DNA of 64,000 nt, from contig JAUCBJ010000315.1 in the NCBI GenBank assembly GCA_032718475.1, positions 26,858 to 90,857 on the forward strand. The letters are read 5' to 3'. Made by a program: the position numbers and the translations under genes. Source of the DNA: Nemertoderma westbladi (taxonomy: Eukaryota; Animalia; Xenacoelomorpha). The notes beneath the pieces are model-generated. The model did not search any database, had not been told where the DNA came from, and worked only from the letters and a program-made list of their open reading frames with translations. Shown one piece after another: positions 31,366 through 64,000 of the stretch; position 1 is the stretch's first letter; every line of letters begins with the position of its first letter.

Positions 31366-31410
31366 TACTACAGTACTACTACAGTACTACAGTACTACTA
31401 CAGTACTACT

Positions 31411-32106: not shown

Positions 32107-33333
32107 TGTTCGCGCTTTCAGACCTTTGGCAGTTTAACCCACCAAATTAAGATGTCTTCTAGATATTAAATCTGTTTTTTAGTCTATGACAAGTATTTGA
32201 TTCACTACACTAGTCGAAACCAATCCGTGCGCGACCATTCACCCGCTGGATATTCCCGGGAGATTGGGTTCGACGGTTTAATTTTTATTGCTATGTAAGC
32301 CTAATGTATTATTCGACTGACAGTATTATATAATCTCTGACAATATTATTCACCTTCGGTAATATTAACAGTTCCTTTAGGACGTGGCGCTTTATCTATA
32401 TAAACAGAGTTATGACTTAAACTACTCACAACGATATGGCTTAATTATAATTCACATATATGGCGCATTCTTTAGGAATTGCTTCTTTAACAGACTCACT
32501 CATACACTATGCTGCACAATACTGCACACTAATATGCCAATCTTCACTGATTTTAGTCACATATAAAAGGAACACAGGCTGACTCATGTAGGGTCTATCA
32601 AATAACATTAGATTCACTTCAAACCACTTTAACATAAGTCACAATCGTTATTGGTAACCTTTCTCTCTTACCTTCGGTATATCAAGAATATTGGGTTGCG
32701 GGGTTATTTATCGTTATTCCAAATATAATAATTCATCAACCATATTATGAAGAACTGACAGTAAATAGCAGTAAACACAACAACTGAACAGTTAGGTAGA
32801 TCGGTACATCAGTACCGGTATGTCAGCAGTGAGATATTTACAGAGATATTCAAGTTAAAGGATATATGCCCTTTATAATTAAACCTACTAGTGTAAGACT
32901 AAAAAGCAGTACAGCACAAAAAACTTCCAAGCCGTTCTTTCTTTGGCTCAAGACTGAATGTAAACACTGCACATAGGCATTGCGTCATTTCTCGGAAATT
33001 TTCTGTACAAGGAGCCACAAAAACGCTCTCATTGGCTGACTGAACTGAGAGACGCCGTAGAACAAAGGAAATCAACACGTATGAATGTCAGCTGTTAACC
33101 GTAGTCATAGTAACTACTGTTCAAGAGTAGCTATCACCCCTTTGCGTCACGAATTGCCATAGAATCATAAAATATGCCTTTCACAGTACACATACGGAGG
33201 AAATAGGTCTTAGATCCTCTAAAAACACCGATACAGCAATAATACGGTCTCTTACACTTATTAAATCAACTACAGAGTATTTTAATGTAAAAGATAATAA
33301 AAATAACGGGGCAATTCAGCAAAGGCTTTTACA
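32107..33333 (-). repeat. 3' LTR
   Basis: Direct repeat of 46384-47610; one substitution noticed by eye (32534 A vs 46811 C). Confidence 0.97.
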
Positions 33334-36133
33334 CCGCTCCCAGAAAATGGGATTTTCAGTCTATAAAATATAAAAATCACAGTTTCTAAAACATAAAGAT
33401 ACTCTAAACAGTTAGTCTTTCTTACGCAGACGGCGTTTCGCAGTTTTTTGAGGCTAGCAAGAGTCTTTTCTCTTTGGGGGGAGCCACTTTACTAGGAGGG
33501 CCATAACTCCTGGGTGAAGGGTGCAATATGATTGCATCAGAAGGTGTAGGATTGTGGTCGAGGTATCTGCCGTTTCGATATGCTTCTCCTCGAGCTGATT
33601 TTCCTCCGCTCGTAGCTGGATACGTTCATCCAAAACTCTCGCAGAGAATAGGATCGTCCAAGTTCGATAACTTCTTAGAGATTCTGGATTTCCCAATCGA
33701 ATTGAGATAAGGCCAATTCGTTTATCGATTGGACTCACTGTTATAACTTACGTTTATCTGAACAAACGCAGGTTTCCTTTTTGATCTTTATAAAATAGCG
33801 TTTAACTCGTTTCGTACAACGCTCTCCTTCCCCTTGATGAGGGGTTGTATCGCGTTAAACGTGGACGACCATACGGTTGGATAGTGATATTAGGTGTCCG
33901 CGTCACAATCCGGCTAGGTAAGATGGGCGGCTAGCTAGAAATCACTGTCGGAGTGTTACCGATTAATTGTTAGGGTAGCACTAGATCTTTGAACAGTGAA
34001 TACAGTCCGCGAGGATCCGCGACACCACCAAGATCGCAGGTCTGAGGTCCAACTAAGGAATGAGGAGGTTTGACCGAGTATTCCGGGACTCTGATCGTAG
34101 GTTTACTCCAGGATCGTTCGAGCCGAGTGAGCATAGGTGATACTTCAACAAGTTTCGGTTTACGTGGATGTTTATGTCTTTCCGTTTATTAGTTGGGTCT
34201 AGGGCATTTATCGTAATAATACCAAAGACGCACGTCTGGTAGGGTAAACGCGGGTGATATTTATTTGTTGTTACAATGCTTCTATCAAGAATTCCAAATA
34301 TACGTTGGAGTTACCGCGTCCATTTGTTTCTTAAGTGTCTTTTCTTTCGAGTCGATTTCGAATAGAATTTTCGCATTCGAATTTCCGTTTATGGTTCTGA
34401 CTCCGCTGGGCAGGATATATGGTCGACATAGTCCATATTGTGTAAATCGATAGGATGACAAGACCATCTTCTATCAACTCCGTCATATCTGCTATATATG
34501 AGTTTATCCATATTATAATGAGTTTATATTTAGGCGAGCGGGCGTCGCTGCCTACCCCAATCAACCCCGGACAGTACGAGATCCTCAGCGCCGATGTGTC
34601 GTCGCCGCTGTACTTTCGCCAACGACGTAGCCGCACAACGACAACGACAACCGGCACAAGTCACTCAACTGTCCGTCCCAAAGGCTTAGATGTACTTCAG
34701 GTTTCCTTGGAGAGTTAGGTTACTTTTACGATTGCGACTAGCTACTGTAAACACACCTTAGCAGTAACATTCACCTATAAACTCACAAATACCACACACA
34801 CAACTTGTCACAAATTACACACACTCGGGTCACTTGTCCGTTAGTCAATGCCTTCCAGAATGTCACTGTATTATTATGTATCCTTGGATACTATCAGTGC
34901 ACTATTTATTCCCTATGCTATTCAATGGGACAAGTTTTCTATTGTTCTTTTAACTCAATTCTAATTCTAGCGTGGTTGTTGCTATGGTGACATTATGCAA
35001 AGCTAGCGGTAGAATTAGGGTGATTCCAATGCATACAGATCTGGGATGTTATTTAATAGTAATTCTTTAATAGTCAATGCTCTGTTTTATACATGACTTT
35101 ATGAATTTTATCGGCTATTGACTATGTTTGGGAGACTTTCACACACTCATACGCATGATAAGATAAATCTCCGCTCCCTTGATCTATTAATTAATGGAAT
35201 TTTGGGAACTTTATAAATTGCGTAAAAATGGCAATTTATTAAATTCATTAAAAGGCATGAATTTAAATTGATTCCCTGAAATTTTATTATTTGATAATTA
35301 AATGGACATATTTGGATTCCAGAACATGTCTAGGGACACAAGATCCTTAATTCTAAGAAATTGTCTCTTTAAGAATATCGGTAAATGCTACGATATCTTA
35401 ATTGACTAGAATTGTTGAAGATCTGAATTTTACAGATTTTGATTTATTAGATTTGCAAATATTAAATAATTAATATTTGAGATGGGCACCGATTTATTCC
35501 AGAACTTGTCTGGGGACGTTAACCACTGATTCTAGAATTTGTCTTTCAAGTATATCGGTGGGTGCCGCGATATCTTAATCGACTAGAATTACAGATGGTC
35601 AAAGGGTTTAACAGATTTATTTTGCGTTATACGCTACTGTTAAAGGGACATCACGCTACTATATGTATTATTTAATATACGGTATGAGAGCAATATCGCA
35701 CGAAGCAATGTCAGTGTGAAGAGGCAAGTCGTTTCCAAGGTCTACCCAGAGCTTGGTTTAGCCGAGACACGAGGATCTGAACTTTGCATTCCTAATACTC
35801 TGCCTACCAATAATACTTAAATATAGTAGTGGCTTTATTGTACTTTAATAAGTACAGACATTTCATCTTACTGTAGTTACGTATTTATAATAGAATACGA
35901 GCAGTAAGGAAAGAGAAAATAATTATTTCTCGCCGTCGCACTAAATATAATATAAGTAATTACGTACGTAATAAACACGAATATATTGCACTATTCTACA
36001 AAATAATCGCTAAATAATATTCTACTAAATTAAATAAAACGATTATAATAAAATTACATAGTAATACATACATAAATATAAAAATAATAATAGAATATAA
36101 AATAATAGAGTCACACGCCCACTCCGAACGATA

Positions 36134-39100
36134 TTAAGTTGGGGAGTCCCTAGATGTCGGTTGGATTAGGGAAGTGGTCGTGGGAAGAGTTTCTTGCCTT
36201 CCATAGTTTCCGGAGAGCTCTCTGTCTCTTTCCAGTAAACATAAACGTCCCACTGGGCGATTGAGCTGTTGAGTCTCAAAGACTATCCCTGGTTTCTTAA
36301 AGTTCCGCCGCATGACGACGAGCTCTACTGATCGCACCAAACCATCGCTCGAGATATAAGTCTCGATGATACGTCCTGTTTGCCATCGCTTACGTGGGAG
36401 ATCGGGGTCCACAATAAGCACCATGTCTCCAGCGCTGACGTTTTCTTGCTGCGCAAACCACTTAGTTCGAAGTTGTAGAGTGGGCAGGTAATGTTTCTCG
36501 AAATGGTCAGCGAAACGACGGGATAGCAACTGCATAAGTTGCCAGGTTCGACGGCAGTACTCGTCTCCGTCTGTGATCTCCGATTGCGGGAGCATGGCTA
36601 CGGGTTTCTTCAGTAGGAAGTGCGCGGGTGTTAGCGCTTCCAGGGAATCCGGATTTGAAGAGACTGGCATAAGCGGTCTTTCGTTGAGATAGGCGGCGAT
36701 TTCCTCCATTAACGTCCGCAATAGTTCGTCGGTGAGATAAGCGCGACAAGGCACAATAAAGTGGAACGCAGTCTTCACGCTCCTGATCAATCTCTCCCAA
36801 CTTCCTCCCCACCAAGGGGCGTCGGCGGCGTTGAAGGTCCAGCTAGACGCTGTTATCCTTAGCTGATCGTCCACCTGTCTTTTGTTCCAGTCCTTTACGT
36901 AAGCTTGAATTTCGTTGTTGGCGCCAATGAAGTTCGTTCCCTTATCCGATCTCATCGTGTTACTGGTTCCGAAGCGGGCGATCTGTCGTCGTAAACTCAA
37001 CACGAAGCTGTTGGTGGATAGATCGTTTACCATATCGAGATGGATAGCTCTACAAGTCATACAAACGAAGATGACACACCATCTCTTGACTATAGTCCGG
37101 GCACGATATACTTCAATAGGGCCAAATAAATCCACACCGGTATTAGTAAAGGGTGGTTCATAGAAGCTTACTCTTTCCCTAGGTAATTCTGCCTCTCGCT
37201 GTGTTAAAGGCCTACTGAATGCTTTCTTACAGGGTATGCAGTTCCTAAGAACTTGGTTCAGAGCCCTACGGGGTTTATAAAAATAGTAGCGAGTTCGAAT
37301 TTCGCTCAGAACTCGTTCTCTACCAGCATGATACAGTTTGCTATGAACATCCACAATCATCTTGATTTGTATCTCAAGATTTCTAATGAGGATGGGAAAC
37401 TTAGTGTCAAAGGATAATGGGGCGTTGGTTAGCCTACCTCCAACACGTATTAACCCATCTATCATGGTACTAGAGAAGCGATCCCTTAAGCGCATCTGTG
37501 GATTTCTTAACAACAGGAAATACTTATCGGAATCCTCATAGCATTGTAGGAGTCTCAGCATCTGTTTGTTGGTTTCATCATGCTCCTGGTAGCTGATCTT
37601 CTCCTTTAGAAACCTGTGGGGTACCTTATATTGGGGAAGATCTTTAACAACATGGACTCGTGCAGATGTTGATGGAGCATCATCACTATTGGTCTTTGTT
37701 CCGGAGTAACGATGATGAAAACATCGTTTCAAATAGGTGACGGCCTTACAGAGCCGATTCCAGGAACTGTAGTGACGTATGGCTCTCTGCAAGAGAGGTG
37801 AGAGTCCTTGCGAGATATCTGGTATTCCAGATTTCCAATCCTTGTCACGGATTTCCAAGACTTCTTTCGTCGTGGCGGTGGGTTTCTGATCCAAAGCATC
37901 ATCTCCGGAAGTAAATAATACAGATAGATCAACCGCAGGTTTAAACAACTTCGATTTACTCGCTCGAGTTTTGGGTTTAACTTTCTCCGCTCCCTTGGCC
38001 TGTCTGATCTCTGCAGTTGTGAGATGGGGTGGCCATTCTTCTTCTTCTCGGTAGAGAAAGTCGGGTCCACCTAACCATTCGGGAGTATTTACCAATTCCT
38101 TTGGAGTCGCTCCTCGGGACGCGATGTCCGCTGGATTAATCGTTCCGGGGCAATGTCTCCATTGGTCCATCGTCGTGCGACTAAGTATGATGGCTACTCT
38201 GTTGGTAACGAAGACGCTGAACTGACAGACTTCATTGGTTATATACTCTAACACGAGTAAAGCGTCGGTCCAATAGACAGTTTTCTCTAACGTATAGTCA
38301 ATCTGTTCGGTTACATTCCGGCCGATGGCTGTAGCGTATAGAGCCGCTTTTAACTCCGCTCGAGGAACTTTCAACTTGTTGTTGATTAATGCCTTAGAAG
38401 TAACCAAAGCGACTTTGATTCCATCCGGAGTTTCCACTCTTAGGTAGGCTACTATACCGATTCCCATATCGCTGGCGTCTCCAAACACATGGAGTTGATA
38501 GGAATACGTAGGGAGAACATGACCAAAATATGAACGGGAAATTATAAACTCCTCGATAGCCGGTAGAGAATCTTCCCATTTCATCCACTGCTTCAGTAAT
38601 TCCCCCTTAAGTGGATCGTCCCATGAGTGGTTTTCAAGCCACATTTGTTGTACCAAACTTCGAGCAATCAATATAACTGGGCTAATAAATCCCAATGGAT
38701 CGAAATAAGTGCTCAGTATACTTAAGCAAATCCGTTTGGTTCGAACAGGATTATCTCGCTGTTTTAGTTGGAAAAACAGGATATCTCTCTCTGTGTCCCA
38801 TTTCAAGCCGAGTGTCTTGGTTTCTGGCAGATCATCTTTGATCAAATCGAGATCTTTCGCTCCGCGATCTTCCGCAGGGATCGACTCCAGAAACTCACGG
38901 GAGTTGCTGGTGAATTTGGTTAATCGAAATCCACCTCTTTTTAAGCACTCTACCGTTCCCTTAGCGACCTCAATGGCTTCCTCAACTGATGGGAGGGACT
39001 TCAGATTGTCGTCCATGTATATGTCTTTCTTGATGTTGTCGATTACTTCCTTAGAGAATGCCTCTCGATTGTCCTCTGCAGTAGTACGCACTACCGAACA

Positions 39101-41805
39101 GGCGTTGGAAGGGCTTGAGATTATCCCAAAGGCCTGGATGGTCATCCAGTACTCCACCGGTTTCTGGTTGAGGTCTCCTTCGGGCCACCATAGAAATCGT
39201 AGGCTATCTCGATCCCTATCCAACACTTTGACTTGCAAGAACATGCCTTCTATATCGGAGGCGAAAGCAATCGAATATTGTCTCAATCTTAAAAGAATTC
39301 CCAACAAAGATTGAAGCAAGTTGGGTCCGGGTAACAATTCAGAGTTAAGGGATTGACCCATGTAAAGAGCGGAGCCATCAAACACTACTCTCACTTCATT
39401 TGGTTTACCGGGTTTAGGAACGTAATGGTGAGTTAAATAATACGTTCTTTCAGTCACAGGTGTTTCTTCCGGTACCCTCTCCGCGTATCCCTTATTAATA
39501 AATTTTTCCAGCTGTGTTTGATACATTGCTTTAGCTGATGAATTAGCCGTAAGGCGTCGATGGAGTTGCGCGATTCTTTTTTCCGCCAAAGGTCTGTTAT
39601 TGATGAACTTCGGTTCTTTCTTGCGGAAAGGTAAACCGACTTCATACCTACCTTGATCTTTGAGGAAACATGTAGTTGTCTCTTGGATCTGCTTGGCCCT
39701 TTCCTCTTCCACCGACAAGGCTTTATCGTAGGAATTGGGCTCTACCGCCTCTTGCGTAAAGAATCGTACAGCATGTTCATCCCGAATCTTGGCATTATGA
39801 CGCTCAATGACGTCATTTAACTCGTCGTTATAAGCTTCTCGTTCAGATGGATAGAGAAGTTGACATAAGTTCACTTGGTTTTGCCAAGCCTCGTTTTCCT
39901 TAAGGAGATCGATGGTATTCTCCTCATCAAAAAGCTGGTGAACATCGTCGTTATCTGAGGAGTATGGAATTCCCTCAGTTGAGTTGTCTCCCTCACTGGT
40001 ATCATCTTCCCATTCACTCACCTGGCATACGCTCTCTTGCGGTAGTCTTTCTCTGAGTGTTCTACGGGAAGGGCCAGTAAAGTACCAACCTACTCTAGTT
40101 CTTACCGCATAGGTCTGTAGTGGCTGCGGTTGAGCAGGCCGTTTCTCTAATGTCTCCAGCGCCTCATGCGCGTTTTGGCCGATGAGTATTTGCACTCCAG
40201 GATAATCAGTCTGGAATCGAGGTATGTTAAGATGTTGGATGCTCTCATCCTCGTCCCAATTATAAAGGTCTGCTTGAGTAGTAGCGAAGTTCTTTATAGC
40301 CACCATTTTCACTGACCTTATGCTGTGTTCTCCTAGTTCGTCTTGTGGGGTGGACAACGCGCCTACATAATAATCAGCTGTTATTGTAGATTTCCAAACT
40401 TGCATTATGCCAGACATGTTGAGCTTAGTTTGGAACTTGAGTTGTCCAGCAAATATATCTTCGGCTAGCTCTTTATCGATGAATGTTCCTGTGCTGCCGG
40501 AGTCCAGGAGGGCGTTCACTACATAACTCCTCTTAGGTCCGTGAACCCTTACTTGCACCACAGGAAACTCTCGGATCCCTACATTGGAAGATGTCTCTTT
40601 CCAAGGTGGTTGTCGTTCAGAAGTAGTTACAGTAAAGTCGTTCTCTGGATCCTTTTCATATGTGAGTGCTCGATACACTGCGGTATTTATCATGTAACAG
40701 GATTCGTTTTCGTCGGAGAACTCGTCTGTATAGAATCCTTCCATCTCAGATTGATCAGTGTCGTTCACATCACTGAATTGGACATGTAGCTCGGAATCAC
40801 TTACCTGATTCGGACTATTTCGATCGAATTCAGCGTGCAACAAGATATGATGTTTCGCACCACACTTTGCACACCTTATGTCAGAGAAACAGGTTCGCCG
40901 TTGGTGTCCTTGTCTGAGGCAATTATAACATAACCGCTTATCCCACATGACTTCGCGTCTCTCTGTTAATGATTTCTTTAGAAATTCATCACATCTATTC
41001 AAATGGTGAATCCCGTCGCACAGCGCACATTTTGGTTTGATGTTACTTACCTTATTTTGAGTCACATTGTGTACACTTGCCCTTTCTTCGGGTTTTCTCA
41101 CCTGAATTCTCTTGGGAGACGTGGGAGGAGTTTTTCTTACCTGTTCCCTCCTGTCATTTGTTCGAGACTTAAATTTACTTACCTGATCTTTAGGCATTTT
41201 GTTCACGTAATAAGATCTATCCGTGTCTTTCCCGCTATCTTCTCCTTGAGAAGTCTGGCTTTCGCCGTCATCGGTATAACATACTGGTGTTACCTTTCTC
41301 CTAGAGACGGGTTTTTCACTTACCTTGTTTTCCGGTGTCTTCTCTCGGGACTGCTTGAGGAGTTGCAATTTCACTTCTCCATCCAAGAATGACATGAGAT
41401 CAGCCATGGTAGGGTCTCGTCGTTGTTGTTCCATCATATAAAGTACTTTCTTATCCCAGCGTGTGCCTACCCCACCTTTCGGTAAAGTAGAAGCCACAGC
41501 TCCAATGACCATAGAACTTTGGTATTCATGAGACTTACCTAACCAATCTAATTGTCTACAGATCTCTTGAATCTCATCGGAAAACTCTATTATCCCACTG
41601 CTGATGAACTTTCTGGGCGCTACTAATTTTGCATATAAATATTTAGCGATATTATTCCTATTACCATACCTGATGTTTAGTATATCCCAAACTTGTCTTA
41701 ATCCGTCTGGATGGCCAATAAACTTTAACGCCATTAACTTGGGAGATCCTTCCAAGCACTCGATGAGGTATCTAAGTTTTTCTCCATTAGATAGTTCTGT
41801 ATGTT
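36134..41805 (-). CDS. BEL/Pao gag C-terminus plus pol (Zn knuckles, aspartic protease, RT, RNase H, integrase)
   Basis: CALCDGIHHLNRC, CYNCLRQGHQRRTC, CAKCGAKHHILLH; LLDSGS; RVVFDGS; YMDD; LHVFGDAS; GVDLFGP; RSDKGTNF; GGSWERLIRSVK. The frame is open upstream of the listed ORF start (TELSNGEKLRYLIECLEG). Confidence 0.95.
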
Positions 41806-44229
41806 ATCTTTGTAATATTCATTAAAAGGTAACCATTTCATCTCATCTCCATTGAACTTGACGATCTCTCCAACCTTTACCGCTTGCCGGGCTTCGGTTC
41901 TAGCCATTTGACGCGTAAAACTTTCTTGGGCCATTGTGCTATTTAATATCGAGTTATCGGTATATAAATTTCTCTGATTATGATCAGTTCTATAGGGAAT
42001 ATCATTATCAACAGGTCTATAATTACCCTTAATAGGGTTCACTATAGGAGTTTCTACTTCGCTAGCAGTATATATGCGTGTAGGCTCCACACCTTGCGCA
42101 TGCAATACTTCAGACCTAACAGGTTGACACATTGTTACAGAGGGTGGTGGTATACCCTTTTGGGTATTTACTAATTTATCGCGTTCTAGCGCGATACTTT
42201 GCTGCACTTCTTGCAACTCTAGCCTACTTTCCCTTACTGTGCCCTTGAATTGCTGGACAGTCTCCTGCATCTGCCCGAGCAGGATATCCATCCCCCGCCG
42301 TCCCCTGTCCACCCATTCGACCGCCGAAGCGGGAGTCGCCAACGTTGTAGCGGGCGGACGAGGGACAACGGGCGACAAATTATGAATATTTCGCTCGGGG
42401 TCCAGGACCTGAACTGTCGCCTGGGCAGTTCTACTGGGCACAGGTAGCTTAGTGCTATGTAGAGGGAATTTAGAAGTAGCTTCAGGGAGCACAGGTGTGT
42501 CTATCACCGAAGGGGTGATTTCAAGAACAGGCCTAATTATTTCAGGCTCATCTACTATAGTAGGGAGTCTTTCTATTGTAATTATTTGGTCTGTGGGCTC
42601 TGTACTACCTAAGTTGGTGTTATTTAGTTGCCTTCTAACAGCTGGAGGCAAATCAGGCAATTTCTGCCGGTGGAATGTTCTTTTACGTCTGCTTAGGCGA
42701 GATCGATTTCTTCCGCCTTCAGTGTCGGTGGTATCGCCTTCCTCAGATGAGGTATACCCTTGTCTTTTGGGAGTAGATCGACTCATCATCTGCATATTAC
42801 TAGCTGCTAACTGTTTACTGAAGTCGTCTTGCTTCTCTTGAAGATTTTCCAACTCCAGTTGGATGATCTCTTCAGCCGCTTTTCGTTCTACTTCCGCCAC
42901 TGCTGCCGCTTTTGCCTCTGCTGCTGCCGCTTTTGCCTCTGCCGCTGCCGCTTTTCGTTCTGCTTCCGCCACTGCTGCCGCTTTTGCCTCTGCCGCTGCC
43001 GCTTTTGCCTCTGCCGCTGCCGCTTTTCTTTCTGCCTCTGCCACTGCTGCTATCTTTCTGTCTTCTATACGCTTTTTCCTTACTTGTTCTTCCCTTTCTC
43101 TAGCGATGCGGAGTTGTTCATCGAATTTAGCTTGGTTCGCCGCTAACCTATCCACATCAATCGCATCTAACACAAGTTTGGCTCCTTCGCTATTAGGGCT
43201 AAGTCCCTCTAGCCTTCTCCTCAACTCTTCATCTCCCACAAAACGCTGATAGTCTGACAGATAGATATCAATGGCATCCTTCTTATGCGGTTTCTCTGCC
43301 GTCGCTTCACTTTCCACTTGGGAAAAAGTAGCGTCTGTTGATTCTCCATGGGTTGAGCGCTCCTCCAACTGAGCCTTCCACTGAGCTGCTCCTTGAACCT
43401 GGCGACTCACCCGTTGAAACCAAGTCTTTACGGCAACTTGCAACGACGTGTCTTGCCTTCTTTTAGAAGCCTCCTCAAAGGCGGATAAGATTAGCCTAAT
43501 CCGCAGAACTCTTTCTCTAACTTGATAAAGCAGCGATCCCTGCTCTTGAGGTCCTTGAGGTTGTTGAAAAATTTGCTTTTCTATTCGCTCCATAGAGCTG
43601 AAGAATCCCTGTGCGTATCCGGCTGCGGACCTCTTCCACACAGCTGGATCGATGGTTTCCTTGGCTACTCCCATCCGGTGTATGTCTTCCCAGGCAGCTT
43701 CTGATAAATCAAACGGGAGTCCGGGTCCGGGGAAGTTCCATTGCGACTCGACAATAGACTTCAGTTCTTCACTAGTGTAGCCCGCGTAGCTATCTCTAGT
43801 TGACCGTTGACTTCTCGCCCAATCGATCTGGTGTTCTTCTACCGCGATCAATAACCCAGCGAGCACGGCTGCAGGAAGGATGAGAAGGGGATCCGTATAA
43901 ACCGCATCCGTCATCTCTGCTCCGCTCTCGGGTGTCAGCTCTACAGTATCCTCACTACTGGAGCTGCTGGGCCGCTGAGGAATAAGTTCTTGACTAGCGG
44001 GTTGTTGCTGTTCCGCTGCTTGTTGGTCCCGCTTGACCTGAGCTCGAGTGCCTATGATAGACCTACGATGTTGGACTAGCCTAGGTTCTGTTATTACTAC
44101 TGGAGGGATGACCTTCCTCACAGTGGGAGGTGAACTGGATTTACGACCAGACGTTTGTACGTCTCTATCTGAGTCGCAGATAGTGACATCTAATAAACTG
44201 TCTGACAGGTTCTGCTTAGTATCAGACAT
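41734..44229 (-). CDS. BEL/Pao gag N-terminal part (coiled coil, Ala/Glu/Lys repeat), out of frame with the downstream ORF
   Basis: 831-aa ORF ending in the start of the Pao gag domain (FNGDEMKWLPF); homologous to the ORF starting at 62773. Confidence 0.88.
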   Translation of the reverse strand: MSDTKQNLSDSLLDVTICDSDRDVQTSGRKSSSPPTVRKVIPPVVITEPRLVQHRRSIIGTRAQVKRDQQAAEQQQPASQELIPQRPSSSSSEDTVELTPESGAEMTDAVYTDPLLILPAAVLAGLLIAVEEHQIDWARSQRSTRDSYAGYTSEELKSIVESQWNFPGPGLPFDLSEAAWEDIHRMGVAKETIDPAVWKRSAAGYAQGFFSSMERIEKQIFQQPQGPQEQGSLLYQVRERVLRIRLILSAFEEASKRRQDTSLQVAVKTWFQRVSRQVQGAAQWKAQLEERSTHGESTDATFSQVESEATAEKPHKKDAIDIYLSDYQRFVGDEELRRRLEGLSPNSEGAKLVLDAIDVDRLAANQAKFDEQLRIAREREEQVRKKRIEDRKIAAVAEAERKAAAAEAKAAAAEAKAAAVAEAERKAAAAEAKAAAAEAKAAAVAEVERKAAEEIIQLELENLQEKQDDFSKQLAASNMQMMSRSTPKRQGYTSSEEGDTTDTEGGRNRSRLSRRKRTFHRQKLPDLPPAVRRQLNNTNLGSTEPTDQIITIERLPTIVDEPEIIRPVLEITPSVIDTPVLPEATSKFPLHSTKLPVPSRTAQATVQVLDPERNIHNLSPVVPRPPATTLATPASAVEWVDRGRRGMDILLGQMQETVQQFKGTVRESRLELQEVQQSIALERDKLVNTQKGIPPPSVTMCQPVRSEVLHAQGVEPTRIYTASEVETPIVNPIKGNYRPVDNDIPYRTDHNQRNLYTDNSILNSTMAQESFTRQMARTEARQAVKVGEIVKFNGDEMKWLPFNEYYKDNIQNYLMEKNLDTSSSAWKDLPS

Positions 44230-46371
44230 GACTATGTATACCGTTGAATGTCTACTGCTGTATTACAGTCTGAGTAAGTCTAGTAACTCAGTATTACCTG
44301 CTAGCCTAGTAATTAATTACCGGTACTGCTACTCAGTGTAGCGTGATATATAATATATTAGAATACCGGTATGCTTATAGTATATATAACTATTATTACA
44401 GACTAGGTTTATCACAGAATACCGGTATAATTTTAGCACAAATATATATAAATATATAATAGGCCTATCGGAATACCGGTATACAGCTTACAATTTATAG
44501 TATATATAATTCTGGACTAGAATTAATTACAAGTACCGGTATAATTTCAGCCTAATATTTATAGAAATAAAGATAATAGGCCTATCGTAAATACCGGTAT
44601 ATCAATTATTATAAATAATTGAATTTCTGTATTTTAGGGTTACTTGGTTACTTACTTACTTTATTACCGTTATTTGAGCAGTAGTCCAACTGATATTGAG
44701 ACCTAATTGTTATATGGTAGGCCTACTATTTATAAATCGTTAGATTTGATTTATAATATATATATACCCGTTTTAATGGGTTTTGTCAATGTTTGAAATA
44801 AATGTTATTATTTCTGGGGAGTAATCACTACACAAAGCGGTGCGCTTTCAGTGAAGTGTTACGTACAGGACACTAAAACAAATAATACTAATTTACCTAA
44901 GTTACTTAATACTACAAATTACGTACAATTCGGGTTGAGATTACAATCTCTAAATAAACACAAAAATTTACAAAAACAAATACGAATTTTTAGGGTAATT
45001 TTACAAGAAGGCTACAAACCAGCCTAACAAAGGGTTAGAAAACCGGTTATTACAGCGGACAGGGTACTACGGTATTTGAAATAATAAGTAGTAGTAAATA
45101 CACTGCGTTGTCTAGATAGGAAAATACCACCGCCTGACGACCTATAGCCGTATCGCTATAGGTTCTACGTTATGTATCACGGAGTGTTCCTACCTAGAAG
45201 TTAATAGAGCTAATCGAATGTGCCTATCAACCACTTTACAACACAAATATAATGCCTACAATAATTACTTCGGAAAGTACTATACACTAAACCCTAAATT
45301 AGGTACGAGTACTTGTATAACAAATAATCAGTAGTTAAATATACTTGAACAGCTAAAAGAACCACGGCATCTGCTGGAGTGACCGATGCACAAAATCACC
45401 AGTCTTTACCTACGCCGAGCAGCCCGTGTAGTACCGAGGTTAATTTAACTATAGCGGTATGTATAACAAACACAATTACTGTAGGAACAAACTTGGGGAC
45501 TGAATGTTGCGGATAATCGCATAAACTCTGAATAATAAATATTACGCTACGCGTACAAACTACTCAAACAAAATACAGACCGAACACTGACAGACTACTA
45601 TCAAGCCTAAACAAACTACGGTATATGCAGACTCCGAAATGATTAGGGAGTATGCGCTCTAACCCAGTAGTGCGACTTATTCTTTAGTCGGGGGTTTACC
45701 TTACAGCGTTCGCTGCCCCTACTGCCTAATCGTACTTAATCGGACAGATGATCTACACACGCGGCAATCCGTTCAGACCTAATAACAGCCAGACAACTAT
45801 CCAGCCTACAAATTATCTAAATAAAATTATACGCTACCCGTACAGACTTACACAAACAAAGTACAGACTAAACGATGGCAGACTACTCTCAAGCCTAAAT
45901 AAACTACAGGACATGCAGACTCCGAAATGATTAGGGAGTATGCGCTCTAACCCAGTAGTGCGACTTATTCTTTAGTTGGGGGTTTACCTTACAGCGTTGC
46001 TGCCCCTACTTCCTAACCGTACTTAATCGGACAAGTGCTCTACACACACTGCAATTCGTTCGGACTTAACAGCAATCAGACAACAGCTCAGCCTACAAAT
46101 TGTCTGTACAATCTGATCAGGTTTACACGCCTTCTGTTCAATACTGGCCTACAAATAAATAAAACTGACAGAAATAGGCCTAAGTAAAATCCCAATAAAA
46201 ACCAGGCGTCCCCGATTAATTATTAAGACCTACCGGCATATATAATCAAATCGAATAATACTGCTGTACTTATACGGAAGTAGGTACCGGTCCGGATGAT
46301 CAGGCAGTCAGGCCTACTGGTTACCGGTCGACCGGTACTTTCGACTTTATTGCTTACTGCAATAAAGAAGC

Positions 46372-46383: not shown

Positions 46384-47610
46384 TGTTCGCGCTTTCAGAC
46401 CTTTGGCAGTTTAACCCACCAAATTAAGATGTCTTCTAGATATTAAATCTGTTTTTTAGTCTATGACAAGTATTTGATTCACTACACTAGTCGAAACCAA
46501 TCCGTGCGCGACCATTCACCCGCTGGATATTCCCGGGAGATTGGGTTCGACGGTTTAATTTTTATTGCTATGTAAGCCTAATGTATTATTCGACTGACAG
46601 TATTATATAATCTCTGACAATATTATTCACCTTCGGTAATATTAACAGTTCCTTTAGGACGTGGCGCTTTATCTATATAAACAGAGTTATGACTTAAACT
46701 ACTCACAACGATATGGCTTAATTATAATTCACATATATGGCGCATTCTTTAGGAATTGCTTCTTTAACAGACTCACTCATACACTATGCTGCACAATACT
46801 GCACACTAATCTGCCAATCTTCACTGATTTTAGTCACATATAAAAGGAACACAGGCTGACTCATGTAGGGTCTATCAAATAACATTAGATTCACTTCAAA
46901 CCACTTTAACATAAGTCACAATCGTTATTGGTAACCTTTCTCTCTTACCTTCGGTATATCAAGAATATTGGGTTGCGGGGTTATTTATCGTTATTCCAAA
47001 TATAATAATTCATCAACCATATTATGAAGAACTGACAGTAAATAGCAGTAAACACAACAACTGAACAGTTAGGTAGATCGGTACATCAGTACCGGTATGT
47101 CAGCAGTGAGATATTTACAGAGATATTCAAGTTAAAGGATATATGCCCTTTATAATTAAACCTACTAGTGTAAGACTAAAAAGCAGTACAGCACAAAAAA
47201 CTTCCAAGCCGTTCTTTCTTTGGCTCAAGACTGAATGTAAACACTGCACATAGGCATTGCGTCATTTCTCGGAAATTTTCTGTACAAGGAGCCACAAAAA
47301 CGCTCTCATTGGCTGACTGAACTGAGAGACGCCGTAGAACAAAGGAAATCAACACGTATGAATGTCAGCTGTTAACCGTAGTCATAGTAACTACTGTTCA
47401 AGAGTAGCTATCACCCCTTTGCGTCACGAATTGCCATAGAATCATAAAATATGCCTTTCACAGTACACATACGGAGGAAATAGGTCTTAGATCCTCTAAA
47501 AACACCGATACAGCAATAATACGGTCTCTTACACTTATTAAATCAACTACAGAGTATTTTAATGTAAAAGATAATAAAAATAACGGGGCAATTCAGCAAA
47601 GGCTTTTACA
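46384..47610 (-). repeat. 5' LTR
   Basis: Direct repeat of 32107-33333; CCAAT (~47310) and TGACGCAA (~47280) on the sense strand. Confidence 0.97.
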
Positions 47611-48504
47611 AACAGATAAATATATATTAGCCTGCTGCATTGCAGCTGCACAATGAGATTCTATCATGATGGCTAACAAAAATATTTGTACCACCACCAA
47701 GCAATCTACAATTGGCTTCCTGTAATGCTGCGTGCATTAACAATGCATCAAGATAAAATTGCACCTTCACAACTCCAGATCTTACTTTTTCGATCACCGA
47801 AAATAAAAGACATATCGCCGACAAACGAAAAACAACATTTTCTATTTGAGCAATCTACTAAATATTAAAGTTATAAAATGATGTCGCCATAATTTTTTAT
47901 GTTTTTTATACATCGTTTAAAGCGCTGTAAAATATAGTCACACAAAAGAAAGAAGGACGACAGAAAAAGGCCAACCCCTTTCGGAGTGAATGTTGAATCG
48001 AACAAAGGTTTACATAAAGGTGGCATTGGGCCAAATCATAATTGTTCGTTGGAGCAAAATTATTTGTTAGTCGAAATAATATCTGGGGCCGTTTAAACAG
48101 CAGTAAAGATAGGAAAATTCAAACTCATTAAACCTAAACAAACTACATAATAGTGGCTGACATTGTACCGGTAGTTTGGTAGGGGCTGTCTGCCGACACA
48201 CAACAGGACGTCGCCCCATTGACTGACCCTATAGATAGGCCTAAAGGCTAATTTGTGTTAGGTTAGGCTAGCAGTTTACTTGAAGGGGAAAAGGTTGAGT
48301 GTGTTAACCACCCCGATATATTTTATGCTTCATTTTCTCGGGTTAAACTTACGTGGGAAAAATACGTTTGATATTTTTTAAAACTGTGTCAACGGCCGGC
48401 CAGTACGTGTATGCAATTCTGTGTTTCGTTGCCATTAAATCACACAAAATTTAAACATTTCTTATCTTTAAGTTATCTTGAAATTAATATGTGACAAAAT
48501 GTGA

Positions 48505-56376: not shown

Positions 56377-57642
56377 CTATGTACTACCGGTGCTGTTTTG
56401 TTGTAAATAATTAGAATTTGTGTTCGTGGAATTTCTCCACTTGCAAGTAAAAATACATTTAAATAGAGCCAAAAACGAACCCAAAAATATTACTACACCG
56501 CCTACTAAACTGATAGTTTCTATGGAATCTTTGGGGAAAAGCGAAATCTGAAAGACAAAGGAAAACAGAACTTCGAAGGAGCTGACGCAAACTACAATCG
56601 TTGTAGACTGCCACTCGAACGCTTTTATAGTTATAACAGTAGCCAGTAATTCCAGAAGCGCTATTACCATGGGAACACAGCGTTTTTGTAAAGAACAAGT
56701 AGGCCATTGGTATCCTCCAAATAATGGAATCAATGGTATGAGAATTAAACTTAGAACACTTCCCCATGTTGTAAATGATAGCCAATGAACATTGTTTCCT
56801 ATTTTTGACAAAAGAACAGCGTAAACTGAATTTAAAAAGGCGGAAATTATTGATGCAATAATAGCGTAGTCTCTTTTTGGATACCTCGAATAAACGTCGT
56901 CGTCATTTTCGTTGTCTCCAAATATTGCACTGGGTCGCGCCACTAGGATTACCCCGCATATATTTATAAGTAGAATTAAACCGTCCACAAACCCGAAGTT
57001 CTGCTTTAGGAAGATTCTCGCGAGAATCGCCACGAAGGCGGACTTCCCGAACACAAGCACGGTGACCAAACCAAGTTCCATATTCTGAAAACTGAAAGTC
57101 AACAACGCGTCCAATAAAACGACAACAACACCCTGAAGAAACAACAAGTAGTTTATTAATTTATTCTCCTTTGAATAAAGTTTCATTCCACGATTCAAAA
57201 CCACCGGAAGTGGAATAAAAAATAGAAAGGAATATTTAAACATAACGAGATGTATGGCTTCTATTCCGGCTACTTTACAGAGTAGATTCACCAAGCTCCA
57301 GATAAACGATGCTATTATAGCCAACACTAGCCCAGCTATTAAACGCCATTTATTAGCCGGAGTGCTGCTTCGTGGATCAATCGTTCTCTCTGCTTCCCGC
57401 ACTACCACCGGTATATTCGCACTAACTTTTCTATGGAATAATGCCAGAATCGATTTCCGAGAGCGCCAACTCTCCCTTTTAACGAACGACAAACCGGCCA
57501 GGGTGTGTCTTTGTTGTTGTACATCTATCTCGTCGCCATCTACCGAATTTTCTTCACTGAACTTCTCCAATGTTGAATCGGATGACGTCACAGACTTAAA
57601 GTTATGCGGATGAGACGACTGTATGTTTGACGTCATCGACAT
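56377..57642 (-). CDS. SLC35G-like EamA/DMT superfamily transporter, intronless (421 aa)
   Basis: About 10 hydrophobic segments in two EamA-like repeats; FVAILARIFLKQ, GVILVARPSAIFG and SFEVLFSFVFQ motifs. Confidence 0.88.
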   Translation of the reverse strand: MSMTSNIQSSHPHNFKSVTSSDSTLEKFSEENSVDGDEIDVQQQRHTLAGLSFVKRESWRSRKSILALFHRKVSANIPVVVREAERTIDPRSSTPANKWRLIAGLVLAIIASFIWSLVNLLCKVAGIEAIHLVMFKYSFLFFIPLPVVLNRGMKLYSKENKLINYLLFLQGVVVVLLDALLTFSFQNMELGLVTVLVFGKSAFVAILARIFLKQNFGFVDGLILLINICGVILVARPSAIFGDNENDDDVYSRYPKRDYAIIASIISAFLNSVYAVLLSKIGNNVHWLSFTTWGSVLSLILIPLIPLFGGYQWPTCSLQKRCVPMVIALLELLATVITIKAFEWQSTTIVVCVSSFEVLFSFVFQISLFPKDSIETISLVGGVVIFLGSFLALFKCIFTCKWRNSTNTNSNYLQQNSTGST

Positions 57643-57816
57643 ATTCGATTATTTTTAAAGATTCTTGTATATTTAATTTTTTGAAATATTTAAAAGGACA
57701 ACTTTTGAAATATTTGTTTCCACTTATCTAATACTGAATGAACAAAACTACAGTATAACATGTACTTTGCACAAACAAAGGAAGTGACTTTTTGTGAGTC
57801 CAAAACCACTCTTTCA

Positions 57817-58485
57817 TAGAACTGCAGTTTTATAACCTAAATTATTGTTACCACGGCAACAGTGAAGAGTTCTAGAACAAAAAATATATAATATACACTA
57901 TTCTAGAACAAAAATAAAATAAACAAATTATTGTTCTAGAACTATAGCTAGTAATTTTTTAAATTTAAAATAGCTAGTACAAAAAAAATTATTTATTTAT
58001 ATTATTATTAAAAAATTATCTGCCGGTACCAAATTGTTTTATTTGTTAAATTTACTAGCTATTTTAAAATAAAAAAAAAATAGCTATATGTTTTAGAACA
58101 TTATAATTTTTTATTTTATTTATGTAATATTATATGTATTATATACTATTCTAGAACATAAATAATACAAATAATATAATGTTCTAGAACATATAGCTAG
58201 TTATTTTTAAAATTTAAAATAGCTAATAATACAAAAAATATTATTTATTTATATATTTATTTAATAGAAAATTTATTTACCAAATTGGATACCGGTATTT
58301 TTTTAAATTTACTAGCTATTTTAAAATTAAAAAAAAACTAGCTATATGTTCTAGAACATTATATTTTTTATTTTTTTATGTTGTAAAATAATATTTTCTT
58401 TTCTTTACTTTTCTATTCTTCTAGAACTCTTCAATGTTGCCATATAGTAACAATGAAATATGTTTTAAAAATGCAGTTCTATACG
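57817..58485. repeat. AT-rich fold-back element with TTCTAGAAC / TAGCTA subrepeats
   Basis: Imperfect inverted arms (ATAGAACTGCA...GGCAACAGTGAAGAGTTCTAGAA vs TTCTAGAACTCTTCAATGTTGCC...TGCAGTTCTAT). A perfect 22-bp inverted pair follows at 58546-58567 / 59176-59197. Confidence 0.7.
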
Positions 58486-60392
58486 GAACTCTAGCCGATT
58501 TTTAATACAAATATTTAGCTAAAAATATCTCAATTGTTTCTTTGGCATTGGTACACCTTGGGTACCCGTAGTTTGACCAACTTTTTTCATATGTAACAGT
58601 CTTTTATCGTGAGGGTTTTTTTATAACAAATATTTGACGTTCTGGCAGTAGGAATAGTAGCTAATAATTTTGATTTTTGCTAGCTACCGGTAGTGTAGTA
58701 CTTTTTTTAGTTAGTGAAAAAAATTAAATTTGAAAATTTTTTTATAATTTTTTCTTGTGAAAATGACTTTTTCTCATGAGTATTTTTATTCTAGAATAAA
58801 TATTTTACAATCTGTCAGTAAGATGGTAGCTAGTAATTTCGATTTTGTGTTAGCTAGTACTTTTTATAAGATATTAAAAAAATTAAACTTATTTAGAACA
58901 TCAAACATAACTGTGAATTTATGTGCTTTAAGTTCTAGATTCAAAATTCTGCAGTTTCTATGGGGTCTAATCATTTAAAATGACCATTTCTTTTAATAAG
59001 GATTTACCGGTATATGGTGATTCGACTGTACTATTTAATTTTCTTCAAAAAATGTTCTAGAACAAAAAATTGTGGTCTAGAACAAAATCTTGTATCTATC
59101 ATGATAGCTAACACATATTCTATCACATTTATAAAAAAAATAGCATAAATAGCTAGTATAACAAATCTGGTCAATGGGTACCCAAGGTGTACCAATGGGT
59201 ACCTGTAAAAGCTTTTGCTGAATTGTCCGGTTATTTTTCCTTATTTTTCCCGTAAAATACTCTGTAGTTGGTTTACCAGGCATAAAAAGGCCGTTTCCTT
59301 GCTGTACTGGTGTTTTAGCGGACATAAAAGCTATTTCTTCTGTATTTGTACTTTAGAGGACATAATCCGTAATTCCGTGACGTAAAAGCTCGATACTCTT
59401 GAAAACAGTGTCGCTACCATGACGACGGCTAGCAGCTGATATTGCCACGTCGACGTTTCTTTGTTTCTTTGTTCTCTCGTTGTTCAGGTTGACCAATCAG
59501 AGCGTTTGTTGTCTCTGTGTTGGAGGTGTATACAGAAACTCAGTAGTTCAGTGTTATGTTTTGCCCAGAGCCTAAGAACCGGCTTTTGGCACCTCCGTGT
59601 TTTCAGTTTTTAGTCCTACACTAGTAGGCTTAATTATAAGGACATATATCCGTTATCTGCATACTGCATACTGCAGTACTGCATACACTGCATACTGTGT
59701 AACACTGTGCATACTTTTATATTGTTATACTGCTATTTACTGTCAGTTCTTCATAATATGGTTGATGAATTATTATATTTGGAATAACGACAAATAACCC
59801 CGAAACCCAATATTCTTGATATACCGAAGGTAAGAGAGAAAGGTTACAGATAAATGATTGCGACCTATGTTGAGTGGTTTGAAGTGAATCTAATGTTATT
59901 TGATAGACCCTACATGATTCGGTCCGTGTTCCTTTTATATGTGACTAAAATCAGTGAAGATCGGCAGATCAGTGTGCAGTATTGTGCAGCATTGTGTATG
60001 AGTGAGACTGATAACGAAGCATTTCCTAAAGAATGCGCCATATATGTGAATTATAACTAAGCCATATCGTTGTGAGTAGTTTAAGTCATAACTCTGTTTC
60101 TATAGATAGAGCGCCACGTCCTAAAGGAACTGTTAATATTTCCCGAAGGTGAATAATATTGTCAGAGATTATATAATACTGTCAGTCGAATAATACATTA
60201 GGCTTACATAGCAATAAGATTAAGCCGTCGAACCCAATCTCCCGGGTATATCCAGCGGGTGAATGATCGCGCACAGATTGGTTTCGACTAGTGTAGTGAA
60301 TTAAATACTTGTCATAGACTAAAGGTGATTTATTATCTAGAAGACATCCTAATTTGGCGGGTTAAACTGCCAAAGGTCTGAAAGCGCGAACA

Positions 60393-60404
60393 ATAACGGA
60401 TATA
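60393..60404 (+). other. Non-tRNA primer-binding site, complementary to LTR positions 59645-59656
   Basis: ATAACGGATATA abuts the LTR end and is the exact complement of TATATCCGTTAT. Confidence 0.8.
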
Positions 60405-62772
60405 GCTTCTTTATTGCAGTAAGCAATAAAGTTGAAAGTACCGGTCAACCGGTAAACCTGAAAGGTACATCTGTAGGTCAGTAGGCCCAACTGCCAGAAC
60501 CGGTACTGCCGTAGGTCCGTAGGTCCAACTGCCAGAACCGGTACTTCTGTAGGTCCGTAGGCCTAACTGTCCTAACCGGTACTTCCCGTATAAGTACATT
60601 AGTATTATTCGATTTTGATAGTTATATACCGGTAGGCCTTAATAATTAATCAGGGACTGCAGCCCTGGTTTTTTATTGAGATTTTTACTTATTTCTGTCA
60701 AGTTTTATTTGTTTGTAGGCCAGTATTGAACAGAAGGCGTGTAAGCCTGATCAGATTGTACAGACAATTTGTAGGCTGAGCTGTTGTCTGATTGCTGTTA
60801 AGTCTGAACGGATTGCAGTGTGTGTAGATCACCTGTCCGATTAAGTACGGTTAGGAAGTAGGGGCAGCGAATGCTGTAAGGTAAACCCCCAACTAAAGAA
60901 TAAGTCGTACTACTGGGTTAGAACGCATACTCCCTAATCATTTCGGAGTCTGCATGTCCTGTAGTTTATTTAGGCTTGAGAGTAGTCTGCCATCGTTTAG
61001 TCTGTACTTTGTTTGTGTAAGTCTGTACGGGTAGCGTATAATTTTATTTAGATAATTTGTAGGCTGGATAGTTGTCTGGCTGTTATTAGGTCTGAACGGA
61101 TTGCAGCGTGTGTAGATCACTTGTCCGATAAAGAACGGTTAGGAAGTAGGGGCAGCGAATGCTGTAAGGTAAACCCCCAATTAAAGAATAAGTCGTACTA
61201 CTGGGTTAGAACGCATACTACCTAATTATTTCGGAGTCTGCATATACCGTAGTTTGTTTAGGCTTGATAGTAGTCTGTCAGTGTTCGGTCTGCATTTTGT
61301 TTGAGTAGTTTGTACGCGTAGCGTAATATTTATTATTCAGAGTTTATGCGATTATTCGCAACATTCATTCCCCAAGTTTGTTCCTACAGTAATTGTGTTT
61401 GTTATACATACCGCTATAGTTAAATTAACCCCGGTACTACACGGGCTGCTTGGCGTAGGTAAAGACTGGTGATTTTGTGCATCGGTCACTCCAGCAGATG
61501 CCGTGGTTCTTTTAGCTGTTCAAGTATATTTAACTACTGATTATATGTTGTACAAGTACTCGTACCTAATTTAGGGTTTAGTGTACAGTGCTTTCCGAAA
61601 GTAATTAGTGTAGGCATTATATTTGTGTTGTAAAGTGGTTGATAGGCACGTTCGATTAGCTCTATTAACTTCTAGGTAGGAACACTCCGTGATACATAAC
61701 GTAGAACCTATAGCGATACGGCTATAGGTCGTCAGGCGGTGGTATTTTCCTATCTGGACAACGCAGTGTATTTACTACTACTTATTATTTTCAAATACCG
61801 TAGTACCCTGTCCGTTGTAATAACCAGATTTCTAACCCTTTGTTAGGCTGGTTTGTAGACTTCTTGTAAAATTACCCTAAAAATTCGTATTTTGTGTTTT
61901 TTGTAAATTTTTGTGTTTATTTAGAGATTGTAATCTCACCCGAATTGTACGTAATTTGTAGTATTAAGTAACTTAGGTAAATTAGCATTATTTGTTTTAG
62001 TGTCCTATAAGTAACACTTCACTGAAAGCGCACCGCTTTGTGTAGTGATTACTCCCCAGAAATAATAACATTTATTTCAACATTGACAAAACCCATTAAA
62101 CGGGTATATATATATTATAAATCAAATCTAACGATTTATAAATAGTAGGCCTGCCATACAACCATTAGGTCTCAATATCAGTTGGATTACTGCTCAAATA
62201 ACGGTAATAAAGTAAGTAAGGTAACCAAGTAACCCTTGAAATTCAGAAATTCAGTTATTTAAAATAATTGATATATCGGTATTTACAATAGGCTTATTAT
62301 ATTTATTTCTATAAATTTTAGGTTGAAATCATACCGGTATTCTGTAATTAATTCTAGTTTGTAATTATACTTATATATATACACTATAAGTGTAAACTGC
62401 ATACCGGTATTTACGATAGGCCTATTATCTTTATTTCTATAAATTTAGGCTGAAATTATACCGGTACTTGTAATTAATTCTAGTCCAGAATTATATATAC
62501 TACAAACTGTAAGCTGTATACCGGTATTCCGATAGGCCTATTATATATTTATATATATTTGTGCTAAAATTATACCGGTATTCTGTGATAAACCTAGTCT
62601 GTAATAATAGTTATATATACTATAAGCATACCGGTATTCTAATATATTATATATATCACGCTACACTGAGTAGCAGTACCGGTAATTAATTACTAGGCTA
62701 GCAGTTAATACTGAGTTACTAGACTTGCTCAGACTGTAATACAGCAGTAGACATTCAACTGTACACATAAGC

Positions 62773-64000
62773 ATGTCTGACGCAAAGCAGAATCTGTCAG
62801 ACAGTCTACTAGATACAACCGAGAGCGAAGTGACAGCAGAGAAACCGCATAAGAGGGATGCCATTGACATCTATCTGTCAGACTATCAACGTTTTTTAGG
62901 TGATGACGAGTTGAGGAGAAGGTTAGAGGGACTTAGCCCTAATAGTGAAGGAACCAAGCTTGTGTTGGATGCCATCGATGTGGAAATGAGAGCTGCGAAT
63001 CAGGCTAAATTCGATGAACAACTCCGCATCGCTAGAGACCAAGAGGAAAGGGTTAAGAAAAAACGTATAGAAGACAGAAAGGCAGCGGCAGTAGCAGCAG
63101 CAGTGGCATCGGCAGAAGCGGAAAGAAAGGCGGCAGCGGCAGAGGCAGAGGCAGAAGCGGGAAGAAAGGCGGCAGCGGCAGAGGCCGAAGCGGAAAGAAA
63201 GGCGGCAGCGGCAGAGGCCGAAGCGGAAAGAAAGGCGGCAGCGGCAGAGGCCGAAGTGGAAAGAAAAGTGGCAGAGGCAGTAGCAGAAGCAGAACGGAGA
63301 GCGACTGAAGAAATCACCCAGTTAGAATTGGAAAACATTCAGGAGAATCAAGACTGCATAAATAAACAGTTAACAGCTAGCAATATGCAGATGATGAATC
63401 GATCTACTCCCAAACGACAGGGATATACATCATCTGAGGAAGGTGATACCACCGATACTGAAGGCAAAGGAAATAGATCTCGTTTAAGAAGACGTAAAAG
63501 AACATTCCACCGTCAGAAATTGCCTGATTTGCCTCCAGCTGTTAGAAGGCAACTAAATAACACCAACTTAGGTAGTACAGAGCCCACAGACCAAATAATT
63601 AAAATAGAAAGACTCCCTACTATAGTAGATGAGCCTGAAATAATTAGGCCTGTTCTTGAAATCACCCCTTCGGTGATAGACATACCTGTGCTCCCTGAGA
63701 CTACCTCTAAATTCCCTTTGCATAGCACTAAGCTACCTGTGCCCCGTAGAACTGCCCCGGATACAGTTCAGGTCCTGGACCCCGAGCGAATTATTCATAA
63801 TTTGTCGCCCGTTGTCCCTCGTCCGCCCGCTACAACGTTGGCGACTCCCGCTTCGGCGGTCGAATGGGTGGACGAGAGACGGCGGGGGAGGGATATCCTG
63901 CTCGGGCAGATGCAGGAGACTGTCCAGCAATTCAAGGGCACAGTAAGGGAAAGTAGGCTAGAGTTGCAAGAAGTGCAGCAAAGTATCGCGCTCGAACGCG
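62773..64000 (+). CDS. gag of the second BEL/Pao element (open to window end)
   Basis: MSDAKQNLSDSLLDTTESEVTAEKPHKRDAIDIYLSDYQRF...; not in the ORF track because no stop occurs inside the window. Confidence 0.9.
   Translation, partial: MSDAKQNLSDSLLDTTESEVTAEKPHKRDAIDIYLSDYQRFLGDDELRRRLEGLSPNSEGTKLVLDAIDVEMRAANQAKFDEQLRIARDQEERVKKKRIEDRKAAAVAAAVASAEAERKAAAAEAEAEAGRKAAAAEAEAERKAAAAEAEAERKAAAAEAEVERKVAEAVAEAERRATEEITQLELENIQENQDCINKQLTASNMQMMNRSTPKRQGYTSSEEGDTTDTEGKGNRSRLRRRKRTFHRQKLPDLPPAVRRQLNNTNLGSTEPTDQIIKIERLPTIVDEPEIIRPVLEITPSVIDIPVLPETTSKFPLHSTKLPVPRRTAPDTVQVLDPERIIHNLSPVVPRPPATTLATPASAVEWVDERRRGRDILLGQMQETVQQFKGTVRESRLELQEVQQSIALER

Follow-up and report, generated by a model that had tools for sequence, protein, structure and literature searches.

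Matched changes in an LTR segment and the primer-binding site suggest self-primed reverse transcription in two BEL/Pao retrotransposons of Nemertoderma westbladi

Self-priming, in which an LTR retrotransposon primes reverse transcription with a piece of its own RNA rather than with a tRNA, has been described for the Tf1/sushi group, Tcn1 and the Copia TAR lineage (excerpts of PMC6317226 and PMC4600332). In Tf1, the RNA's first 11 bases pair with its primer-binding site (PBS), RNase H cutting between base 11 and base 12 (PMC7175516, excerpt); about half of the Tf1 cDNA has the reverse-transcribed full PBS at its 3′ end (PMC11042837, excerpt). By a published criterion, self-priming is predicted where at least 10 bp of pairing start 0–5 nt after the LTR (PMC6317226, excerpt). 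BEL/Pao, one of the main LTR superfamilies, is described as tRNA-primed: the ICTV profile of the Belpaoviridae gives tRNA priming, an 18-nt PBS for tRNA-Arg or tRNA-Gly and genomes of 4.2–10 kb (PMC8742986). Its clades include Sinbad, Sparrow, Surcouf, Suzu, Tas and others (PMC6238403, excerpt). Term look-ups in excerpts of three BEL papers (PMC554778, PMC3118150 and PMC6238403) found no discussion of PBS or tRNA, and excerpts of PMC6934838, PMC3601003 and PMC3286476 contributed nothing about how BEL elements are primed. Neither self-primed BEL elements nor a primer spanning a splice junction turned up in a literature search whose scope lay largely outside subscription journals, Repbase, GyDB and supplements.

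The window analysed here, a stretch of 64,000 nt, contains two BEL/Pao LTR retrotransposons of one family, element 1 on the minus strand and element 2 on the plus strand (Table 1). Element 1 is a young BEL/Pao element; its two LTRs show a single difference. We judged membership on RT and domain content rather than on primer type. Element 1 has the BEL/Pao domain order (PR-RT-RH-IN) and the specific Pfam domains, with PF05380 matched at a Pfam E of 5e-36 alongside DUF1759, DUF5641 and an integrase zinc finger, and it has TG..CA LTR ends, a target-site duplication and a PPT. By eye, what we take to be the RNase H motifs are intact in ORF2. ORF1 has no match in Pfam. Element 1 has 717 homologues at E ≤ 1e-20, of which at least 120, all those among the matches listed, carry PF05380; they include named proteins of echinoderms, cnidarians, a nemertean, a mussel and a fish, with up to 45% identity. 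These Pfam and homologue matches rule out membership of the Tf1/sushi clade of Ty3/gypsy chromoviruses. Judged by the lack of a TGG behind the LTR, neither element has the 18-nt PBS matching a tRNA 3′ end that is given for the Belpaoviridae, and an Rfam search gave no match.

Table 1 Coordinates of the two BEL/Pao elements and of their predicted priming features, numbered along the window
Feature	Position	Strand	Remarks
Element 1, whole	47610-32107	-	Complete, 15.5 kb
Element 1, 5′ LTR	46384..47610	-	1227 nt
Element 1, 3′ LTR	32107..33333	-	1227 nt; 12-mer repeated at 32866-32855
Element 1, 5-bp target-site duplication	left copy 47611..47615, right copy 32102-32106	-	
Element 1, LTR 12-mer, predicted self primer	47143-47132 (and 32866-32855 in 3′ LTR)	-	TATATCCTTTAA
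Element 1, PBS	46383-46372	-	TTAAAGGATATA; 12/12 complement of 47143-47132
Element 1, ORF1, gag side	41734..44262	-	842 codons, stop to stop
Element 1, ORF2	36134..41803	-	DUF1759, protease motif, RT (YMDD), PF05380, integrase zinc finger, DUF5641
Element 1, purine-rich tract before 3′ LTR	33334..33341	-	PPT-like, by sequence
Element 2, 5′ LTR	59204..60392	+	1189 nt, TGT..ACA
Element 2, LTR 12-mer, predicted self primer	59645..59656	+	TATATCCGTTAT
Element 2, PBS	60393..60404	+	ATAACGGATATA; 12/12 complement of 59645-59656, no spacer, no TGG
Element 2, hairpin directly behind PBS	60409..60431	+	9 bp, predicted; identical in element 1
Element 2, gag-side ORF	62740..63999	+	Open at window end

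The LTR of element 2 is 81% identical to that of element 1 overall and ~95% identical in the 3′ two-thirds, the leaders are ~92% identical, and ~280 residues of element 1 are missing from the gag side of element 2. In element 1, the two long frames share 70 nt close to where DUF1759 begins (41734-41803, minus strand), the 5′ leader measures 2.1 kb and has internal repeats of ~290 nt and ~140 nt, and 2.8 kb in which all frames are ≤109 codons separate pol from the 3′ LTR (33334-36133, minus strand). The element adjoins the edge of an 8/11-nt minisatellite (31780-32101, 31178-31410, 299-463) that appears again inside a larger inverted duplication, roughly 500-2900 versus 29200-31200. Elsewhere in the window, a 1193-codon open frame on the minus strand (22062-25643) resembles, by eye, a non-LTR retrotransposon with a YADD RT motif, a C-terminal zinc knuckle and a restriction-like endonuclease, presumably CRE/NeSL-like; it has 57-nt tandem repeats in the RT region, a GC content of ~60% against 36% around it, and no Pfam match. 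A single-frame EamA-like transporter gene (56377-57648, minus strand; Pfam E 7e-16) encodes a protein for which our search found no homologue at E ≤ 1e-10. An AT-rich, MITE-like imperfect palindrome of ~250 nt (77%) occupies 58143-58394.

Both PBS 12-mers begin at the first base after the ..AACA end of the LTR (offset 0), and the partner 12-mer lies 736–748 nt upstream of the PBS; those of element 2 were found where an earlier note on this sequence had placed them. The LTR end of element 1 is set by its two LTRs plus the 5-bp target duplication, and alignment served to place that of element 2, whose 3′ end lies beyond the window. In neither element does a TGG occur in the 60 nt behind the LTR end. 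A perfect 12-bp complement in the element's own LTR has a shuffle p of 0.0004–0.0012, and none of 400 downstream control windows matches a 12-bp complement. In folds started next to the 12-mer, a start that we chose, the 12 pairs have probabilities of 0.70–1.00. With 12 bp at offset 0, both elements lie within the published self-priming criterion. The PBS of element 2 begins with ATAAC (60393-60397), like the five bases given for the Tf1 PBS (PMC11042837, excerpt), a likeness that is probably a coincidence because element 1 differs there.

The earlier note had pointed to a double change at positions 8 and 12 with 12/12 pairing kept, and this is confirmed: both positions differ between the elements on both sides, in the LTR 12-mer and in the PBS. 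The PBS flanks differ at 13 of 238 sites (5.5%), giving a chance of ~1.9e-4 that the PBS would change at exactly the two matching sites, to the matching bases and nowhere else (1.7e-3 conditional on two PBS changes). The two LTR-side changes alone are unremarkable because local LTR divergence is high (21.5% in U3 and 28% in the 80 nt after the 12-mer). Crossed duplexes have an energy of −7.3 kcal/mol, versus −11.6 and −13.3 kcal/mol for each element's own. Within the window family, covariation is a comparison of two copies. Contigs from public sequencing runs, none of the runs being recorded as RNA, were compared in two layouts, with 40 of 111 and 40 of 63 rows listed; none of these rows shows the four changed sites, and shares in the layouts are skewed to whichever reference was taken. 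In both layouts the summed contig depth is 5- to 20-fold lower immediately 3′ of the 12-mer, which suggests that subfamilies diverge there. The most diverged part of the LTR (28%, with low-complexity repeats) is the 80 nt right after the 12-mer (47131-47050 / 59657-59725), and a conserved block lies just upstream of it.

We therefore propose, with a probability of roughly 0.8 on the evidence of sequence, that the window elements prime reverse transcription with a piece of their own RNA and not with a tRNA. By the Tf1 model, the 5′ region of the element transcript would fold back onto the PBS, the element's RNase H would cleave where the paired stretch ends on its 3′ side, and the freed RNA piece would prime minus-strand DNA. 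The primer would then be copied into the new PBS during plus-strand synthesis, so that a change in the 12-mer would enter both LTRs via the 3′ copy and the PBS one cycle later; matched changes would therefore need no two selected mutations. The earlier note had offered either such a self-derived primer or selection on the duplex as the cause of the matched changes. That pair of causes is supported (PBS-side chance ~2e-4, no TGG), and the two are not separated by the data. We lean somewhat towards re-copying over selection alone because even the weak terminal A–U pair changed in step.

Relatives were collected by alignment search of metagenome and genome contigs, yielding 101 BEL loci (79 from the best 80 of 504, and 22 more) that are presumably host-animal DNA; for most of them, RT identity is 39–45%. 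The 22 contigs L080–L101 code for BEL/Pao RT and in several cases also have LTRs; they come from bacterial genome bins and are likely host DNA inside those bins. RT searches of viral contigs found no relative, and a 21-nt LTR-end pattern had 0 matches in viral and metagenome contigs. In 11 families the LTR end was set independently, where the 5′ and 3′ LTRs part, and none of the 11 has a TGG within 5 nt of it. The LTRs of the relatives hold an intron-like segment (GTRAG..pyrimidine-YAG), and the PBS pairs with the bases flanking both its sides, which is why contiguous self-complements are short in these elements. Under a strict splice filter with perfect pairing, 5 of the 11 families pair over 11–15 bp, against 0 of 200 controls each. 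The filters were loosened after this strict first pass, once the pattern had been seen; with the looser filter, own PBS against own predicted junction scores at least 10 in 9 of the 11 families, and 5 of 110 swapped pairs do so (permutation p 5e-6). The exceptions are L018, which has no intron and a contiguous 10 bp, and L083, with one PBS mismatch in both LTRs and a score of 9 that is reached by 13 of 100 controls.

A scan of loci with a long ORF near the RT counted at least 10 perfect pairs across a predicted junction at 32 of 1,591 positions after ACA versus 218 of 82,538 other positions (29 loci). About 4 of the 32 matches are expected by chance and 6 are chance-like; the remaining 26 fall in 17 families. 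Of 23 rows, which include 11 chosen because they had a match, 21 attain 10 perfect pairs; shifting the splice site by 1–2 nt keeps at least 10 bp in only 4 of 184 cases. The predicted introns span 71–451 nt in these rows (67 nt in L075), pairing starts 0–4 nt after the LTR, the primer side mostly ends in AC, and a poly(A)-like word follows within 200 nt of the acceptor in 16 of the 23. A search for the best two-piece duplex that ignored splice signals returned GT..AG in 1 of 11 families versus 3 of 165 controls, and is underpowered because chance two-piece matches outscore 11–12 bp. A tolerant junction search of 52 further loci gave mostly noise, and the spliced junction was not found as DNA in the 101 loci. 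A contiguous complement starting at an initiator-like YAG was also tried as a reading of the relatives (Fisher p 0.001 for offsets 0–3 and 0.057 for offset 0; blind scan 17 of 1,484 versus 764 of 76,692, no enrichment) and was dropped because those AGs are acceptor-like.

A partner that is one contiguous stretch of LTR, as the earlier note described it, holds for the window's elements; most relatives have a predicted splice junction instead. In elements 1 and 2 the best junction scores are 7 and 4, equalled by 57 of 100 and 92 of 100 controls, and the contiguous pairing scores are 13 and 13.5; by their sequence, the two are the contiguous, intron-free form. Two splice-like features were seen in their LTRs. 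The conserved LTR block opens with a pyrimidine-rich tract ending in TAG (59607-59613 / 47182-47176), ~32 nt before the 12-mer, that could be a splice acceptor; a conserved donor for it was not seen in the two LTRs. A donor-like AG/GTAAGA is likewise conserved in both LTRs, together with a word resembling a branch point and a TAG 77 nt further on (59830-59906 / 46948-46872), a spacing close to the size of the relatives' shortest introns, and the junction that this site would form has no complement longer than 7 nt in the 5′ leader of the window's elements.

A search for further covariation in related families, as the earlier note had proposed, found a second double compensatory change between L081 and L082 (78% identical). 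The last exon-1 bases are CAC in L081 and TAA in L082 and the PBS reads GTG and TTA, so two of the last three exon-1 bases differ, and likewise two matching PBS bases, with 11 perfect pairs in each. What looked like an unmatched PBS change between them was only apparent, being the matched change at the donor. The middle of the intron has large indels. Another donor in L081 scores slightly higher than that of the 338-nt intron, which was chosen because covariation with L082 picks it. More widely, ~20 distant families have differing PBS letters, each matched by differing LTR letters, and do not show the independent variation of PBS and LTR partner that the earlier note said would speak against it.

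These families bear on the idea that the pattern reflects chance, or a one-off event at the DNA level such as a short template switch or conversion between the arms, with no priming role. The idea draws on the small comparison, just two copies of the window family, and on the fast evolution of the LTR around the 12-mer. Against it, the joint chance is very small, and distant families show the pattern again, in their case with the pairing confined to a predicted splice junction; a junction of that kind is invisible at the DNA level, which disfavours a DNA-level event. We regard this explanation as extremely unlikely.

The duplex could also be real and selected but structural, serving packaging, dimerisation or the control of translation or splicing, with a host RNA such as a tRNA half as the primer. 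Half-tRNA priming occurs in Copia lineages (PMC6317226, excerpt), self-priming is here a prediction from sequence, and the look for tRNA genes covered the window, in which none lies. A structural role is nevertheless unlikely: in every family the paired stretch lies 0–4 nt after the LTR end, exactly at the priming point, and leaves no space for another primer. A host-RNA primer would have to accommodate ~20 families with different letters, and elements 1 and 2 would need two host RNAs between them.

Self-priming thus remains our preferred reading, and the RT phylogeny that the earlier note had called for bears on how far the relatives speak for the window. Besides elements 1 and 2 and L018, the contiguous form is seen in L017 and L060, whose LTR ends were inferred from the PBS match itself; L017 has a TGG 26 nt earlier than its inferred LTR end, at the point where the contig end truncates its 3′ LTR. 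In quick trees of 95 rows (7 loci dropped as short) and 28 rows, L018 groups as sister to junction-type families, and so, separately, does L017 (SH-aLRT 95–100), and a single clade of the four contiguous-type elements is rejected (AU p 1e-39). Element 1 forms a long branch outside all others (support 98 and 91; distant outgroup), so the relatives' evidence reaches it by analogy; its lineage may have lost the intron or may never have had one.

For most relatives we predict a primer put together by splicing an intron of 67–451 nt from the 5′ LTR copy. Only this cap-near copy would be spliced and able to pair with the PBS. An unspliced 3′ LTR copy would hand the intron down; it would survive because the 3′ LTR is the template for all sequence upstream of the cut. 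A donor close to the cap may be recognised through the cap, which could explain why the 5′ copy is spliced and the 3′ copy is not. Occasional splicing of the 3′ copy would yield contiguous forms, which, the window's two elements included, may have arisen more than once, likely by intron loss. Primer and site would drift freely together. On balance we think it probable that a wide branch of BEL/Pao elements in aquatic animals has abandoned tRNA priming for a self primer built by the spliceosome, with splicing of the cap-near 5′ copy only, per-cycle rewriting of the PBS, transposition gated by splicing and contiguous forms arising repeatedly.

A further possibility is a self-derived primer whose source is not the 5′ end in cis. 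Transcription would then start downstream of the 12-mer, and the primer would be supplied by the 3′ copy of the LTR or by another RNA molecule, which for junction types would be an LTR transcript that has been spliced and acts in trans. In element 1 a TATAAA stands 6–11 nt before the 12-mer and could put the start behind it, against the cis model, and the same 12-mer is present in the 3′ LTR. Relatives show no consistent TATA spacing before their donors: in 5 of 23 rows a TATA-like word falls inside the 70 nt, at −29 to −60. The word is not conserved as TATAAA in element 2, however, and both LTRs have a CCAAT 150–170 nt upstream of the 12-mer and initiator-like TCAGT words ~90–105 nt upstream; the start would therefore fall before the 12-mer. 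Cutting the 3′ copy would, moreover, be expected to shorten the strand-transfer template. We consider a primer of this origin very unlikely, and priming by the cis 5′ region remains the reading carried into the comparison below.

If it is correct, BEL/Pao would be the third self-priming superfamily, after Gypsy and Copia. Such elements would presumably be freed from tRNA supply and from silencing by tRNA fragments, and self-priming would explain why PBS finders fail on them. The natural compensatory changes are a kind of sequence support absent from earlier self-priming predictions. The splice-built primer, for which we found no precedent in the literature, would be the more surprising part.

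In domain order, PF05380, DUF1759, DUF5641, TG..CA LTRs, 5-bp duplication and PPT, the window's elements resemble the Belpaoviridae as profiled by the ICTV in 2021 (PMC8742986); unlike that profile, element 1 measures 15.5 kb and is without a tRNA-type PBS. The plant Copia TAR lineage (Houba, Osr-1) and the Tcn1 chromoviruses were predicted to be self-primed by the same sequence criterion; they belong to other superfamilies and hosts, and covariation or a splice junction is not mentioned for them in the excerpt (PMC6317226). With Tf1 and Tf2 of S. pombe, Tj1 and the Tf1/sushi group, the window's elements share the lack of a tRNA site, a PBS directly after the LTR that is complementary to 11–12 nt of the element's own LTR, and an RT with an RNase H domain (PMC7175516 and PMC4600332, excerpts). 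They differ in belonging to BEL/Pao and not to Ty3/gypsy, and in the place of the partner: for Tf1 the primer has been demonstrated to be the RNA's first 11 nt (PMC7175516, excerpt), whereas the partner here lies ~740 nt away and its position relative to the transcript start is a prediction. Finally, no intron is described for Tf1 in these excerpts, whereas most of the BEL relatives studied here need a predicted splice.
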